Shown in pieces: positions 32,898-57,725 of a DNA stretch of 64,000 nt. This DNA comes from a virus (lineage: Duplodnaviria; Caudoviricetes), in the IMG/VR virus record IMGVR_UViG_3300011116_001007; one strand, 5' to 3'. Each line of letters begins with the position of its first letter. The first letter of the stretch is position 1. The notes beneath the pieces were generated by a model that worked only from the letters and a program-made list of their open reading frames with translations, was not told the origin of the DNA and made no database searches. The position numbers and the translations under genes are program-made.

Positions 32898-33925
32898 TGT
32901 AGTATTTTTCCTATATGTTCTACTTCTGCATCAGTCAATGTGTGTTGATTTGGCACACTAAAACTGATTTTGCTGAGACGATCACTGTTGGTTGCAACAC
33001 CCGGGTATAAGTATTCTTGGTGAATCGGTAGTTGATAATGAACAGCACATTCTATTCCTGCATTGCGTAATTCAACTACAGTTTGATCTCTTAGATCACT
33101 TTGGAATACCAGTTTACTGTAGGTGTGTTGTTGTAGATGTTGTTGCATGCCTGATTGATATTTACTACGTTCTATTAAATATTGAGCAATTTTGTTTCTA
33201 CGTGTTTGCCAGGTGTTAGAATGATCTAATCCAGACCATATGCAGGCCGCTTCAAAACTACTGATCATACTGTTAAGTCCAGGATCGATAGCATGATCTG
33301 AGTTGCGATTCTTACCATGTAATCGCAACAGTCTGCATGATTCAGCAACAGCATCACTGTCAGTGAGCACAGCACCTCCACTGCCCCAGCTGCTGATAGG
33401 TTTGCTTGGAGCAAAACTTACACAGCCAACTACCCCATTTTTGGCACTCCAGCAGGTACCGTTGTGACTTTCTAGACTTTGTGCAGCATCGCTGATCAAT
33501 GGAATTTTCAATTGATTTAACGACTCCCAATGACTCATGTTACCAAATATATCAACAGCCACCACAGCAGCACAATCAGAAATTTTGCCAACGTCAATAC
33601 AATAGTCATTGCCAACATCTATAGGTACAACTTGATGTCCGGCACGTGCCACTGCATGTGCAGTAGCAGTAAATGTATAACTGCTCACTGCCACACGAGA
33701 CTGCGGAGGAAGATTCAATGACTTAACAGCTAAAAATAATGCATCAGTGCAACTGGCAGTGGTCACACAATGTTTACGTCCATACTGTTGAGCCAGTCTC
33801 TGTTCTAATTTTTTTATCAACTGACTATTCTGAGCCAGTCCTTGTGCATGATCTTGTTCAACCAGGTGCCATACCTGTTCGCGTATGGTTCTCCAGTTTA
33901 AACTATTTTGAAATAAAGATATCAT
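32894..33925 (-). CDS. DegT/DnrJ/EryC1/StrS PLP-dependent sugar aminotransferase
   Basis: TASCTDAL, TFTATA, DAAQS, SFAPSKP (Schiff-base Lys), GGAV. Confidence 0.88.
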   Translation of the reverse strand: MISLFQNSLNWRTIREQVWHLVEQDHAQGLAQNSQLIKKLEQRLAQQYGRKHCVTTASCTDALFLAVKSLNLPPQSRVAVSSYTFTATAHAVARAGHQVVPIDVGNDYCIDVGKISDCAAVVAVDIFGNMSHWESLNQLKIPLISDAAQSLESHNGTCWSAKNGVVGCVSFAPSKPISSWGSGGAVLTDSDAVAESCRLLRLHGKNRNSDHAIDPGLNSMISSFEAACIWSGLDHSNTWQTRRNKIAQYLIERSKYQSGMQQHLQQHTYSKLVFQSDLRDQTVVELRNAGIECAVHYQLPIHQEYLYPGVATNSDRLSKISFSVPNQHTLTDAEVEHIGKILQ

Positions 33926-33926
33926 A

Positions 33927-34547
33927 CTAAAAATAATTGTTTACCACAGTAAATGCTTCGGCTAACACTTGCTGATTACGCTGGGCCCAATATTGGTTGG
34001 TCACACGTACATGTTCTATATCTTCAAGACCAAGATAACTGTTATAACATTTCAACAAAGTTTTTTTAAATTCCCATTGATCTGATATGTCTACAAACAA
34101 ATTTGGCTGAGTAGAATAGTGATGGCAATAGGGCCATTGATGCATAATCCAAACTTGTTTGGCCAACTTCTTTACTATGGGCCATACCAAATGATAAGTG
34201 TTAACATGGTCTTGATGGCTGTCTTCAAAATTTGGTATGATAGCAATGTCACAAGATTCCAACAACAGAGACAATCTAGACATAGTCACATTGTCTCTTA
34301 CCAAATTAGGTCGACCATTGCTGTGTAAATCAGTATCAAACACACGAAGTTCAAATTTTGAATTTTGATAACTACAATCTAACTCTGCTTGTACTACTGA
34401 TTGGTCACGCCCTGGGCGATCCTCTGAACTGGGACGCACAGTGATTACAGAGATTATCTCAGCACCTTGTTCTTGAAATTTTTTCAGTGTTCCTGAACAT
34501 GCAATTTCAACATCATCAGGATGCGGAGAAATTACCAATATTTTCAT
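33927..34547 (-). CDS. PIG-L/LmbE family N-acetyl deacetylase
   Basis: SPHPDDVE and DSHQDH metal motifs. Confidence 0.85.
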   Translation of the reverse strand: MKILVISPHPDDVEIACSGTLKKFQEQGAEIISVITVRPSSEDRPGRDQSVVQAELDCSYQNSKFELRVFDTDLHSNGRPNLVRDNVTMSRLSLLLESCDIAIIPNFEDSHQDHVNTYHLVWPIVKKLAKQVWIMHQWPYCHHYSTQPNLFVDISDQWEFKKTLLKCYNSYLGLEDIEHVRVTNQYWAQRNQQVLAEAFTVVNNYF

Positions 34548-49433: not shown

Positions 49434-49570
49434 ATGATAATATATAGGTGCTCTCTGCGGCGCTTGAATCCACGGTAGCCCTGCTCTTCCTGGCACTTCT
49501 TCACACGCCGCGGGCTAGTGAAGGTTGGTGTTGTTCCAGTGTAGCTACTACAGAAAGCATTTATATGATA

Positions 49571-49659
49571 ACCATATGGAAACACACTAAAAGTAATCTA
49601 ACATACAAGAGCGCCGTGCGAACGTATGCTAAAAGGTATCTAATGTGTTTGCATATGGT
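49571..49659 (-). repeat. 18-bp-stem hairpin cassette 1 (ACCATAT.x.AAACACA family)
   Basis: Arms 49571-49588 and 49642-49659; one mismatch at stem position 9. Confidence 0.75.
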
Positions 49660-50551
49660 GAAAGGACTGAGAATACATCCTCTCCAACAACACCTCGGAC
49701 ATTATTGTACACCTTGCGAGTATACTTTCTTCCGACTTCCACCCGGCCCTATTTCTAGGTATCCTGGTCTGCTGTCAGCATCGCCGTTTAGAGACAGGCA
49801 GTAGTCTTGACGCTGTATGCTATTCTACGCTTTCTATTCCGTTGACCTTGCGAGCCATTCAAGTGCGCTAACACCTTACGAAACTTCCTGCATAAACTAA
49901 TGTCACCTTGCGAGCTTCATTAGACTTGGTTCTCTTGCGAGCCAAGTATTAGATGCTTTTCACATACAACCGAGTCAGTCTTTGCGTTTTAATCGTTAGA
50001 AGGAGTTGAACCTTCAGTCTATTTCTTAAAAGGAAATCGGCCTACCATTAGCCTATAACTGAACCTACTGCGATGTGCTGACTCAGTTGCTGCATACTCT
50101 TTTGGAATACACAATACAACACACCACGTACCTTTTGTCTTGCGAACTACTCAGTCGTCTTTTGCGATCGGTGTGTCCCCGCCTTTCGACAGACCCACTA
50201 ACCACTCAAACTGCATACGAGCCCTTGGGTGCAACCCCTCGGACAAATACGCTACCCTTTCTCATACTAATTAACTGGACTGGTTTAGTTGTGAAGTCAG
50301 CACCACCTGTTACTTTCCATCGACTCAAGTTCCCCTTGCGGGCTTGTAAATCAACGTTCTTTCCACAACATCCAGCGTCATTGTTACAACCACCGGTCTT
50401 ATCAGTGATCGCTACCTCACGGTAGTGAGCAGGCTTGCTTAAACGAACTATCTCTAGCGGAGTTATGTAGGCATACCTCCTTTGGCTGTGTCACCACAGT
50501 TATTCTTCATAAACCAGCAAGCTGGCTTATAGGACGTTAAACCGCCCTTGA
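49657..50551 (-). ncRNA. ~900-nt large structured RNA, GOLLD-like candidate
   Basis: No credible CDS; own promoter; six C-GCAA-G tetraloops plus other GNRA loops; 5'/3' helix AAGGGC/GTCCTT; embedded tRNA module. Confidence 0.65.
49992..50062 (-). tRNA. tRNA-Lys(TTT)-like module embedded in the large RNA, no encoded CCA
   Basis: ATTTC-ctTTTaa-GAAAT, GAAGG-ttcaact-CCTTC, D arm with AATGGTA; acceptor stem has a bulge. Confidence 0.6.
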
Positions 50552-50557
50552 AATCTT

Positions 50558-50586
50558 ATTGTAGCATCAAAGTTGATCCTTGTCAA
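50558..50586 (-). promoter_or_regulatory. sigma70 promoter TTGACA-17-TACAAT driving the large RNA
   Basis: -35 50586-50581, -10 50563-50558. Confidence 0.75.
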
Positions 50587-50596
50587 CTTGAGTTTT

Positions 50597-50680
50597 ACCA
50601 TATAGAAACACACTAGCCTGCAGGACTACTAATAGCTCACGGGTACGCCGCTACTACTAGGTAATGTGTTTTTATATGGT
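50597..50680 (-). repeat. 18-bp-stem hairpin cassette 2
   Basis: 5' arm starts with the ACCA of tRNA-Lys(TTT); mismatch at position 9. Confidence 0.75.
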
Positions 50681-50752
50681 AGGACCGCCCGGATTCGAAC
50701 CGGGAACTGGCGGATTAAAAGTCCGCTGTGATAACCATTTCACCACGATCCC
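50677..50752 (-). tRNA. tRNA-Lys(TTT)
   Basis: gcgga-ctTTTaa-tccgc, CCA. Confidence 0.93.
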
Positions 50753-50756
50753 ATGT

Positions 50757-50831
50757 TGGTCCCTCTACCGAGATTTGAACTCGGACGTCACGGATTAAGA
50801 GTCCGGCATGCTGCCTTAACATCTTAGAGGG
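50757..50831 (-). tRNA. tRNA-Lys(CTT)
   Basis: ccgga-ctCTTaa-tccgt, CCA. Confidence 0.88.
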
Positions 50832-53679: not shown

Positions 53680-53771
53680 TGGGCCTCTGAGAGTGGAATT
53701 GAACCACCAAGGTTTTTGGAACCTTTTTGACCTACTAGTAAGGACGACTTTACCGATTCGTCTACTCAGAG
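53680..53771 (-). tRNA. Degenerate type-II tRNA-like element with central CTA (amber-like) triplet
   Basis: CTCTGAG/CTCAGAG acceptor, GAC-gaatcggtaaa-GTC D arm, loop taCTAgt, AAGGTT/AACCTT variable arm, GGTGG-ttcaatt-CCACT T arm, CCA. Confidence 0.55.
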
Positions 53772-53777
53772 ATAACT

Positions 53778-54165: not shown

Positions 54166-54280
54166 ACCATATAGGAACACACTACGTATCTTAGTCACGT
54201 GTAGTTTTGGAGGGCTACACTACAGACCCAAATAGTTAGACCGCGAATCTAACCCAACCTGGAGTATGTTCTTATATGGC
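54166..54280 (-). repeat. 18-bp-stem hairpin cassette 3
   Basis: Arms 54166-54183 and 54263-54279; 5' arm begins with the CCA of the upstream tRNA mimic. Confidence 0.7.
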
Positions 54281-54353
54281 AAACTCATTGCGGACAGGAT
54301 TCGAACCTGCATCACCCACTAAGGGCATCCTAACCACTAGAAGACCGCGAGTT
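54277..54353 (-). ncRNA. tRNA mimic with truncated anticodon arm and bulged, extended acceptor stem
   Basis: D loop CTAGTGGTT, GCCC-ttagt-GGGT, GCAGG-ttcgaat-CCTGT, AACTC-GCGG/CCGC-aat-GAGTT, GCCA. Confidence 0.55.
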
Positions 54354-54401
54354 CCTGAGGGCAATTACTCCCCAGCACGGATGCTACCTGCAGATAACAT
54401 T

Positions 54402-54484
54402 ACCATATAGGAACACACTTTAGTAAGCCCTACGCATCCGACAAAGTTGTCACGCATCCAAAGCAAAATGTGTTTTTATATAAT
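54402..54484 (-). repeat. 18-bp-stem hairpin cassette 4
   Basis: ATTATATAAAAACACATT / AGTGTGTTCCTATATGGT, G-U pairs at the base. Confidence 0.7.
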
Positions 54485-54494
54485 ACCATATAAA

Positions 54495-54680
54495 TTGAAT
54501 TTGTAAGTAGCAGCACCTCACTCATTGCTACCATTCTACCTGTATTTTCTGTGAAGCCGCGGACAGGATAGAGGTACGTAGTAATAGTAGCTACTTAGCA
54601 GTTGCCATGTTGCCGGACTCGAACCGTTGCCTCATAAGGTTTTCGACGCCTTACTTTCACTACATCTACACTTACAAAAC
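54495..54680 (-). ncRNA. T-arm-containing ncRNA family, copy B
   Basis: See copy A; T arm CGG-TTCGAGT-CCG. Confidence 0.65.
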
Positions 54681-54803: not shown

Positions 54804-55041
54804 CACTATATGAAAACACAATTATACAGGAACTTTGCTGATAAAATCTAATCTAGCTATGATTAGACCAATCGCCGTCATTACTGCCTACCTGTTTCGT
54901 CTTCCTCATCTTCATGGCCTAAGCCACTGATTCAGCATCTTGTAAGTGGAGGAGTAGCCAGCCACGGCGGGGCTCAAACCCATAATCCTATCACTCACCT
55001 AACGATGTAGGTAACCTGTATAATTGTGTTTACATATAGTG
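54804..55041 (-). repeat. Hairpin cassette 5 with 27-bp arms enclosing 184 nt
   Basis: CACTATATG(A/T)AAACACAATTATACAGG inverted repeat at 54804-54830 and 55015-55041. Confidence 0.8.
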
Positions 55042-56866: not shown

Positions 56867-57124
56867 TTAGAGTTCCTTTAGGTTAATGAAATTTATGCCG
56901 GACATTGTCAGTTCGACGACATGGTGTACTGCGCCTCTCATCACAATTGGATTGTCTCCAATCATAACTGGTGGGAAAATACTGTTCCTGAAACGGTTCG
57001 GTTTTATCCGCTTTTGTTTCATAGTCATCAAGTTGTTTTTTGTCTTGCATACATATATAACGCGGTAGCCCAGCATCACGTTGACACAAGCCAAAAAGAA
57101 ACCCGCCAAAGCGGGTTCTGAATT

Positions 57125-57410
57125 TCTGTTACGAGGTATGTCTTACCCTAAGCGGCGTTTAGGCTGCTAATGCGAACAGTTCGTCGTTTGCGTTTATAGA
57201 TTTTCTTCTTTTTACAAGGTTGCTCTTGTGCTGTCCACTCTGTTACTCTTTACTCTGTCGAAACCAGGGCAGGCCCATCAAAAGAACTATCGACTAACAT
57301 TCCCCCACATACTGCATTTCTGGTGTGGCTAATGCAAAAGTTCTTTTGGTGGACCTGGCGGGAGTCGAACCCGCGTCCAGAACACTTTTCTCTTTGCTTC
57401 ATACAGCAAT
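57125..57410 (-). ncRNA. ssrA: Circularly permuted (two-piece) tmRNA; tag ANDELFALAA at 57159-57191
   Basis: Acceptor piece GCGGG-TTCGACT-CCCGC-CAGGTCC-ACCA (ends 57347) lies upstream of the coding piece starting GGGCCTG...TTCGAC (57276); terminator 57094-57120. Confidence 0.88.
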
Positions 57411-57419
57411 AACTTTTAT

Positions 57420-57725
57420 TTATCGTTGATAGCAATTACGCTCACGGTAAATCTGACCATCCGGCATCTGAATTTCTCTCCACGCTGTGCAAATGGTCTG
57501 GGGTTGTGGTACAATCACTTGCTCACGTTGAACCACAACTGGTTGTGGCTGGTTAGCATTGGCAATTACTGCTCCAGCAATACCACCAATGATCAATGGG
57601 CCAATCCAGTCATTTCTTTGTTCAACAATAACAGGTCGGTTGTCCCAATGTCGATGATCATGACGCCATTGTGCTTGGGCTGCGGTTGCTGCTAGTAATG
57701 CAATTACCAATAATACTTTTTTCAT
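57420..57725 (-). CDS. Secreted/membrane small protein
   Basis: Signal peptide, GGIAGAVIA helix; AGGAG SD. Confidence 0.7.
   Translation of the reverse strand: MKKVLLVIALLAATAAQAQWRHDHRHWDNRPVIVEQRNDWIGPLIIGGIAGAVIANANQPQPVVVQREQVIVPQPQTICTAWREIQMPDGQIYRERNCYQR

Follow-up and report, generated by a model that had tools for sequence, protein, structure and literature searches.

The locus analysed here raises two related questions: which RNA is encoded by a block of about 0.9 kb that follows a near-consensus promoter and is bare of credible genes, and whether the tRNA-shaped element embedded in that RNA is a tRNA gene or a part of the RNA itself. The window, by which we mean the whole 64-kb stretch of DNA that was analysed, is part of a virus contig in IMG/VR that measures 102,964 bases. 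Since CheckV rates this contig of ~103 kb as only ~30% complete, it is a fragment of a jumbo phage. The phage is large, uncultured and of freshwater origin, and its GOLLD RNA gene is located inside an array of 33 tRNA genes.

Of the 35 ARAGORN calls on the 64-kb window, which all share one strand, 33 are free tRNA genes, one is the embedded module and one is a tmRNA, which according to the Rfam and ARAGORN scans of the window is of the two-piece type. The GOLLD locus lies within this run of 33 tRNA genes and the tmRNA. A tRNA-array setting was likewise found in 10 out of 10 relatives scanned, and the scans of 104 records (the window and the fetched loci) gave 1,406 tRNA calls altogether. The Pfam scan of ten neighbouring ORFs revealed generic phage replication and repair domains only, and hence offers no pointer to the function of GOLLD. 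The presence of a tRNA(CUA) in the array brought up the idea of amber recoding; it was rejected, as reading TAG as a sense codon lengthens the ORFs less than reading TGA or TAA does. Between positions 49657 and 50552 all ORFs of the minus strand are at most 40 aa long, in agreement with the original prediction that the region contains no credible coding sequence, and the two ORFs of 116-118 aa on the plus strand of the same interval are without support.

Family membership and extent of the RNA

The original prediction proposed either a member of the GOLLD family or a new class of RNA of comparable size, to be told apart by a search with the Rfam models of GOLLD and ROOL. The search decided for the first option. 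The GOLLD model (RF02032) matches positions 50127-49664 of the minus strand with 202.4 bits (gathering score 150, E = 1.1e-55), the match covers model positions 1-416 of 416 and is not truncated, and a rescan of the parent record gave the same match with E = 4.1e-59, while ROOL RNA (RF03087) has no match at the gathering score anywhere in the 64-kb window. In the cmscan alignment nine of the ten pairs of the 10-bp long-range helix of the Rfam GOLLD consensus are formed, with few non-canonical flags, and ten relatives scored with the same model reach 192-212 bits. The model score, the long-range pairing, the size, often above 800 nt in the family, together with a structured 5' domain, and the phage setting in a tRNA cluster are all those of a GOLLD RNA. 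The RNA is a regular representative of a family already known, and there is nothing categorically new about the locus; it probably belongs to the lake-derived group after which the family was named. The features discussed below are collected in Table 1.

Table 1. Features of the GOLLD locus, in coordinates of the 64-kb window
Feature	Position	Strand	Basis and remarks
Whole conserved GOLLD unit, ~895 nt	49657..50551	-	Conservation edges, blastn relatives, RNA-library contigs
5' domain, clade-specific half, ~13-14 helices	50128..50551	-	RNAalifold covariation
Conserved GOLLD 3' domain	49664..50127	-	Rfam RF02032, model positions 1-416, 202.4 bits
tRNA-like linker module, anticodon loop CUUUUAA (UUU)	49991..50062	-	ARAGORN; Rfam tRNA
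Linker-closing pseudoknot helix (6 bp), 5' strand	50078..50083	-	Partner 49973-49978; covariation
Linker-closing pseudoknot helix, 3' strand	49973..49978	-	Non-nested covarying stack
Sigma70-type promoter with TG extension	50558..50586	-	TTGACA-17-TACAAT; predicted start near 50551-50548
Trailing hairpin cassette, directly 3' of GOLLD	49571..49659	-	Fold and conservation in relatives
Second copy of the hairpin cassette	50597..50680	-	Between tRNA-Lys(UUU) (50677-50752) and the GOLLD promoter

Relatives were collected by searching IMG/VR with a degenerate pattern derived from the 3' domain; at least 120 contigs matched, and 120 loci were fetched. In blastn comparisons, 92 of the 120 fetched loci match the window RNA at 66-91% identity, and most of these matches cover the 904-nt query from positions 1-4 to ~898. 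Some of the 28 loci without a blastn match are chance hits of the pattern; among the GOLLD loci in this remainder, some possess modules with other anticodons, and many have linkers that are not tRNA-like. When 37 sequences (the window and 36 relatives) are aligned together with flanks of 150 nt, their identity to the window is 0.14-0.36 as far as ~50550, where it rises abruptly to 0.81, and from there down to 49657 it stays at 0.6-0.95. Because conservation rises at ~50550 and holds to 49657, with sharp edges at ~50551 and 49657, we delimit the unit to ~895 nt, which bears out the length that had been proposed. The clade, with over 90 near-full-length relatives in public viromes, constitutes a rich set for comparative analyses.

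At least a part of the stretch occurs in 20 public runs from 15 studies, which are mostly lake, river and freshwater metagenomes and include six metatranscriptomes. Four RNA libraries of lake or freshwater samples, each from a different study, contain contigs that tile positions 49688-50541 with a summed word depth of tens to hundreds; these are assembled contigs from relatives at least 85% alike, devoid of information on ends and strand, and may include carried-over DNA. The silence of the flanks was considered as a control for DNA carry-over and set aside as weak, as the flanks are not conserved among the relatives either.

The 5' half of the RNA (425 nt) has no family match in Rfam. This result fits the literature, in which GOLLD is described as a universally conserved 3' region combined with a less conserved 5' region (PMC12286853). 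The covariation among homologues for which the original prediction called is evident in this 5' domain: from 33 sequences, RNAalifold predicts 114 pairs in the region 50553-50128, of which 71 exhibit compensatory double changes. In this set of pairs 98.9% of the alignment cells are paired, compared to 35-44% if the partners are slid by 1-3 columns, and the same displacement reduces the number of compensatory pairs from 71 to 10-22. Pairing also joins the start and the end of the 5' domain (columns 76-77 with 451-452). The full-length alignment of 53 sequences contains four non-nested covarying stacks. The stack that closes the linker as a pseudoknot (50083-50078 with 49978-49973) displays double changes in 5, 3 and 20 of the 53 sequences at three of its pairs, and covaries also in the Sinorhizobium phage Phosso. 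The thermodynamic folding of 896 nt yields -279.7 kcal/mol (z = -3.1 versus shuffled sequences).

As to the loops, the six minus-strand CGCAAG motifs that had been listed are present at exactly the places given for them (49713, 49847, 49907, 49934, 50139 and 50335). Counting both strands, the 64-kb window contains the hexamer 31 times, which predicts ~0.2 copies for one strand of a 0.9-kb segment, as opposed to the 6 seen. Not all of the loops listed as GNRA are tetraloops: according to covariation, the motif at 50139 forms a 5-nt loop, CGCRA, and at ~50165 CGCAAA makes up one strand of a helix plus a junction. Conserved palindromic loops suited for self-kissing contacts were sought and none were found; the contacts described for GOLLD mostly join different loops.

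Ends of the RNA and the flanking hairpin cassettes

The promoter proposed upstream of the RNA is confirmed at the sequence level: TTGACA (50586-50581) and TACAAT (50563-50558) are separated by a 17-nt spacer and accompanied by a TG extension, with 11 out of 12 positions agreeing with the consensus. From this near-consensus element, 6 nt upstream, the host RNA polymerase would be expected to start transcription of the RNA. A corresponding element (TTGACA/TTGACT-17-TAYAAT) precedes the conserved block by 5-6 nt in 9 of the 36 relatives, and a promoter match within 110 nt upstream is present in 12 of the 37 sequences. In the other relatives, what comes before GOLLD is a hairpin cassette or a tRNA-like element of ~85 nt that escapes the tRNA calls, followed by a conserved UAAGAAU; in three of six other relatives examined, a similar promoter is found ~200 nt upstream, ahead of the tRNA-like element. 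Since only about one third of the relatives have the promoter directly upstream, an abutting dedicated promoter is thus one of several arrangements and not a fixed feature of the clade, and many relatives must obtain the 5' end of the RNA through processing.

A closing helix between the two ends of the RNA (AAGGGC/GUCCUU) and a 3'-terminal ACCA had been put forward as further support for the GOLLD assignment. Neither serves that purpose, and the membership in the family is unaffected by their loss. Each arm of the supposed helix pairs locally and covaries there. The 5' arm, AAGGGC, forms a local hairpin with 50535-50531, the inner pairs of which covary (C-G, U-A and G-C at columns 13/22; A-U and G-C at columns 14/21). 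The GUCC of the 3' arm is the closing strand of the terminal hairpin of the Rfam model, with a 3-bp stem that covaries among the relatives (GGA/UCC, GCG/CGC, GCA/UGC, AGG/CCU and ACG/CGU) next to an invariant 5' GGG. The ACCA is indeed present in the window (49659-49656), but it is not a meaningful end: the lower stem of the trailing hairpin begins with these four bases. A tRNA-like end was rejected also because the motif is not conserved, as most relatives have CCAC-UAUUC(U) at this place.

The hairpin directly downstream of GOLLD consists of a 7-8-bp lower stem, a 1x1 mismatch, a nearly invariant AAACACA/UGUGUUU box and a variable interior; in the window it folds with -36.5 kcal/mol (z = -8.3) into a stem of ~21 bp that lacks a U tract. 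It follows GOLLD in 30 of 32 aligned sequences examined, and in all 30 the lower stem comprises seven perfect base pairs, despite the occurrence of 10 sequence variants of this stem and interiors that range from 10 to 80 nt. The second copy in the window (Table 1) takes the ACCA of tRNA-Lys(UUU) into its lower stem, and three further copies are located at 54.2-55.0 kb, which makes five in all. Judging from the sequence, the trailing hairpin would mark the 3' boundary of the RNA. Because it has no U tract, we consider it most likely to be a processing site for a double-strand-specific enzyme that would separate RNA units, rather than a terminator. This role is proposed by analogy with the RNase III sites of T7 early transcripts.

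A tRNA-shaped module in the linker

The predicted cloverleaf of a tRNA-Lys(UUU) without CCA was recovered by ARAGORN (49991-50062), and the Rfam tRNA model (RF00005) matches it with 53.4 bits, over model positions 4-67 only. Its D, anticodon and T arms are of the canonical type, with GG in the D loop, UUCAACU in the T loop, and U33 and A37 in the anticodon loop. The acceptor stem has only 4 bp (positions 4-7 with 66-69), since at positions 1-3 the facing bases are U.U, C/A and A.G, and the module has no CCA, as opposed to 33 out of 33 free tRNAs of the window. The module occupies the linker that is single-stranded in the Rfam GOLLD model, with the first hairpin on one side and the long-range helix on the other, which is where embedded tRNAs have already been described (PMC12286853, PMC12990946). 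A free tRNA-Lys(UUU) is called by ARAGORN at 50677-50752, 615 nt upstream of the module. A recent origin of the module by copying of a free phage tRNA was considered and rejected: its best identity is ~0.6, to tRNAs of unrelated anticodon. Contigs from the RNA libraries bridge both junctions of the module with the surrounding RNA (e.g. 49694-50084, 49853-50091, 49923-50166 and 49646-50142). Given the missing top three acceptor pairs, the lack of CCA, the anticodon shared with the free tRNA-Lys(UUU), and the contigs across the junctions, we read the module as a putative permanent part of the RNA and not as a tRNA gene that is cut out.

All 82 relatives with an extractable linker possess the module, in 63 distinct versions, and every stem of it covaries. 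The anticodons of the 63 distinct modules are GUU (Asn; 33), UUU (Lys; 14), CUU (Lys; 6), UGU (2), UCU (2) and six singletons, one of them AUU; in 54 of the 63 (86%), a 7-nt loop of canonical form thus presents NUU. ARAGORN recognizes 50 of the 63 modules, with 4-8 acceptor pairs and no CCA in any of the 50, and leaves 13 uncalled. The median best identity between a module and the free tRNAs of the same locus is 0.63, the best-matching tRNAs being of unrelated anticodon, and in 15 of the 20 loci that have at least 20 tRNAs one of the free tRNAs has the anticodon of the module.

The module and the scaffold that surrounds it have different histories. The scaffolds of two loci (L018 and L117) are 99.9% identical, with modules that share 61% identity, whereas in another pair (L098 and L014) the relation is inverted, with 74% for the scaffold and 95% for the module; over 666 pairs, the correlation between module identity and scaffold identity is 0.39. 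The sequences that flank the module are nearly invariant parts of the scaffold. Because the two histories disagree, we conclude that the module is exchanged as a cassette between these linker anchors, independently of the scaffold. One pair of RNA-library contigs, in which a diverged module of the same length is embedded between matching flanks, fits such an exchange. As far as the GOLLD literature that we searched goes, neither the exchange of cassettes nor the difference in CCA between the module and the free tRNAs has been shown before. The clade is characterized by a module that is obligatory, limited mostly to NUU anticodons, without the features needed for charging, and swapped as a cassette. 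That the module is constrained to NUU, duplicates free tRNAs and is swapped as a unit suggests that its anticodon arm is read by some factor.

The reading that competes with a permanent module is that of a stored tRNA-Lys gene, which would be excised by RNase P and a 3' nuclease, receive its CCA from the CCA-adding enzyme and decode AAA and AAG late in infection, as in the "inhibited storage" idea (PMC12990946). The cloverleaf of the window is complete, with canonical D, T and anticodon loops, the relatives nearly always have a sense anticodon in a 7-nt loop, and by virtue of G-U pairs some of them (L080 and L015) can form 7-8 acceptor pairs. Two distant GOLLDs (L032 and L118) go further and have a module with a full acceptor stem, followed by CCA. 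Because of these full or potentially full stems and the CCA, we conclude that a real tRNA is, or was, released in parts of the GOLLD family. For the window, however, we regard storage as unlikely. Apart from the four acceptor pairs, the mismatches at positions 1-3, and the absence of the CCA that all 33 free tRNAs encode, a free tRNA-Lys(UUU) is already available nearby; the flanks of the module are nearly invariant scaffold, with the pseudoknot just beyond, and so are not free for acceptor pairing; and both junctions are bridged by contigs from the RNA libraries. Moreover, in Mycobacterium aubagnense, where the GOLLD RNA has been seen by Northern blot, no transcript of the internal pseudo-tRNA by itself was seen (PMC6582537).

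Possible function and comparison with known systems

GOLLD has been known since 2009, and its ability to build a cage from RNA alone since 2025. Cryo-EM has revealed that two GOLLD RNAs form hollow cages free of protein, one of 14 chains in the case of env-38 (833 nt; PDB 9MEE), and one of 12 chains in the case of Streptococcus agalactiae (PMC12286853, PMC12990946). The GOLLD linker faces the lumen of the cage (PMC12286853). From membership in the family and from these two structures, it is to be expected that 12-14 copies of the window RNA would build a protein-free cage, in which the linkers and their tRNA-like modules would face the lumen. We consider it very probable that the locus as a whole is best explained by a GOLLD RNA of ~895 nt that would start at the promoter, be bounded by the hairpin, hold the tRNA-shaped module permanently in its linker, and assemble into such a cage.

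It is tempting to ask what a cage lined with tRNA look-alikes could do. We give an even chance to the idea that these caged, multivalent look-alikes engage, during infection, some factor of the host or the phage by which both the body of the tRNA and the NUU anticodon loop are recognized. A more specific proposal is that the 12-14 NUU anticodon arms of each cage would soak up an anticodon nuclease, or another tRNA-directed enzyme of defence or modification, in which case the swapping of cassettes would track the specificity of the host. The predominance of NUU among the distinct modules (86%, with UGU in two more) is in line with this proposal, as the targets of the PARIS nuclease AriB, namely Lys(UUU), Asn(GUU) and Thr(UGU), make up the same set of anticodons (PMC12409363). 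So are the redundancy of the modules with the free tRNAs and their replacement independently of the scaffold, as in the two pairs of loci described above. This support is correlative, however, and Lys and Asn tRNAs are common in the tRNA sets of phages for reasons of codon usage. A direct match to the UAAU motif of the E. coli AriB determinant (U36-A-A-U39) was looked for and is absent, as the module has G39 (PMC12409363). In addition, a linker that faces the lumen would hinder the access of proteins unless they are admitted through pores (PMC12286853), and the GOLLD of Xanthomonas phage BUDD has no module. Since U39 of the E. coli determinant is missing here, we keep the soaking-up of a nuclease or modification enzyme as a doubtful reading.

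In a related and similarly doubtful scenario, the GOLLD cage would be a delivery frame, in which 12-14 lumenal arms of the NUU (Lys/Asn) type would capture or occupy a tRNA-directed host factor. Examples would be PrrC- or PARIS-like anticodon nucleases, or class IIb synthetases or modification enzymes that read U35, and recombination at the invariant linker anchors may allow the phages to exchange the bait. If true, this would be the first function for GOLLD.

The idea of a new RNA class that merely resembles GOLLD, or of two independent RNAs (a 5' RNA and a GOLLD 3' domain), draws on the facts that the Rfam model spans just the 3'-terminal 464 nt and that the 5' 425 nt have no family match, but it is highly improbable, as variability of the 5' domain has itself been described for GOLLD (PMC12286853, PMC12990946), all 92 loci keep both halves side by side and conserved together, and contigs from the RNA libraries span the boundary between the domains (e.g. 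50109-50276 and 50062-50183).

Returning to the reading as a single GOLLD RNA, its resemblance to the GOLLDs of env-38 and S. agalactiae is extensive: all share a full-length match to the model, a length of ~0.9 kb, a conserved 3' domain combined with a variable yet structured 5' domain, many loops of the GNRA type, a phage tRNA island, and a linker between the domains, with the cage being predicted only in the case of the window RNA. Two differences stand out. The freshwater clade fills the linker with a tRNA-shaped module (82/82), while for env-38 the only description of the linker is that of a disordered loop, and the clade of the window has a conserved hairpin cassette directly 3' of the RNA, of which we found no description in the literature. 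The large phage and prophage RNA ROOL (RF03087) also resides near tRNA islands and assembles into a cage that has a disordered internal linker, but its sequence and fold are unrelated.

A closer parallel for the module is offered by the GOLLD of Mycobacterium and Mycolicibacterium, which lies in horizontally acquired tRNA arrays and contains an internal pseudo-tRNA (PMC6582537; Morgado 2020 via PMC12990946). In the J13/15 GOLLD the linker is reported to hold a tRNA-Phe that points inward (Morgado 2020, as cited in PMC12990946). The arrangement is the same as in the window, with a tRNA-like element in the linker of a GOLLD inside an array of more than 30 tRNA genes, and no transcript of its own has been seen for the Mycobacterium element (PMC6582537). 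The differences are in the anticodon (Lys(UUU) in the window and NUU in its clade generally, versus tRNA-Phe in J13/15), in the host, and in the context of a lytic jumbo phage.

Among cultured phages, we identified unannotated GOLLD genes in the Sinorhizobium phage Phosso (PV764938.1; Rfam score 186.6 bits), in the Xanthomonas phage BUDD (181.9 bits; without a module) and in the Xanthomonas phage X1. Compared to the window RNA they exhibit 66-71% identity, over parts of the 3' domain only. In Phosso the linker is closed by the same pseudoknot and holds a module with a truncated stem, the anticodon of which, UCU, is different. The observations made on the freshwater clade narrow the hypotheses worth testing, and Phosso, with the module, and BUDD, without it, are cultured phages that can be used as test systems.

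The GOLLD block and the hairpin cassettes

One contig from X19, a public RNA-library run whose assembled contigs match the stretch, joins window position 49555 to 50757 with 89 other letters between them. It comes from a relative in which tRNA-Lys(UUU), both hairpin cassettes and GOLLD are missing, so the block behaves in its entirety like an indel. The five cassettes of the window have in common a lower stem that covaries, a 1x1 mismatch and a nearly invariant AAACACA/UGUGUUU-type box, and their interiors are unrelated to one another. In three of the five, the RNA unit before the cassette contributes its NCCA as the start of the lower stem; the cassettes appear to punctuate the RNA island. 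Placed between cassettes are two elements with a tRNA T arm, called neither by ARAGORN nor by Rfam tRNA, which are possibly non-canonical tRNA-like RNAs.

Coordinates of the RNA features (L-numbers are fetched loci)
Feature	Location	Strand	Details
Hairpin cassettes (five)	window 49571-49659, 50597-50680, 54166-54280, 54402-54489, 54805-55040
T-arm element	window ~54285-54400	-	T arm GGUUCGAAUCC
T-arm element	window ~54600-54660	-	T arm GGUUCGAGUCC
tRNA, anticodon CUA	window 53680-53772	-	93 nt; ARAGORN, label 'Pyl'
Two-piece (permuted) tmRNA, betaproteobacterial type	window 57097-57459	-	phage-encoded; Rfam + ARAGORN
Region with the conserved tRNA-like element directly before GOLLD	L042:8441-8640, L098:1207-1400, L113:10270-10461, L103:7150-7346, L005:6134-6330, L031:6997-7190		element ~85 nt
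GOLLD gene, Sinorhizobium phage Phosso	PV764938.1 (L122) ~33533-34001		186.6 bits
GOLLD gene, Xanthomonas phage BUDD	ON758385.1 (L123)		181.9 bits

tRNA-like elements, suppressor tRNA and tmRNA

In six relatives, the element preceding GOLLD combines an acceptor-like GCACACA/GUGUGC with a T arm; ARAGORN calls it only in L098, as tRNA-Leu, and a sigma70-type promoter lies upstream of it in half of them. The window is without this element, and its promoter abuts GOLLD instead. In the tRNA array of one relative, at L103:5559-5751, there is a match to a group I intron (52.7 bits vs the gathering score of 50).

The long variable arm and encoded CCA of the CUA tRNA make it a putative amber suppressor. 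TAG terminates only 3 of the 54 ORFs of at least 150 aa. Reading TAG as sense lengthens the ORFs no more than reading TGA or TAA likewise, and therefore this ORF-length test gives no sign of amber recoding. The tmRNA, which lies within the tRNA island and encodes the tag ANDELFALAA, is also found in the relative L113; its type hints at a betaproteobacterial host for the window phage.

GOLLD in cultured phages

In the records of the cultured phages Phosso and BUDD, the GOLLD genes fall where no feature is annotated.
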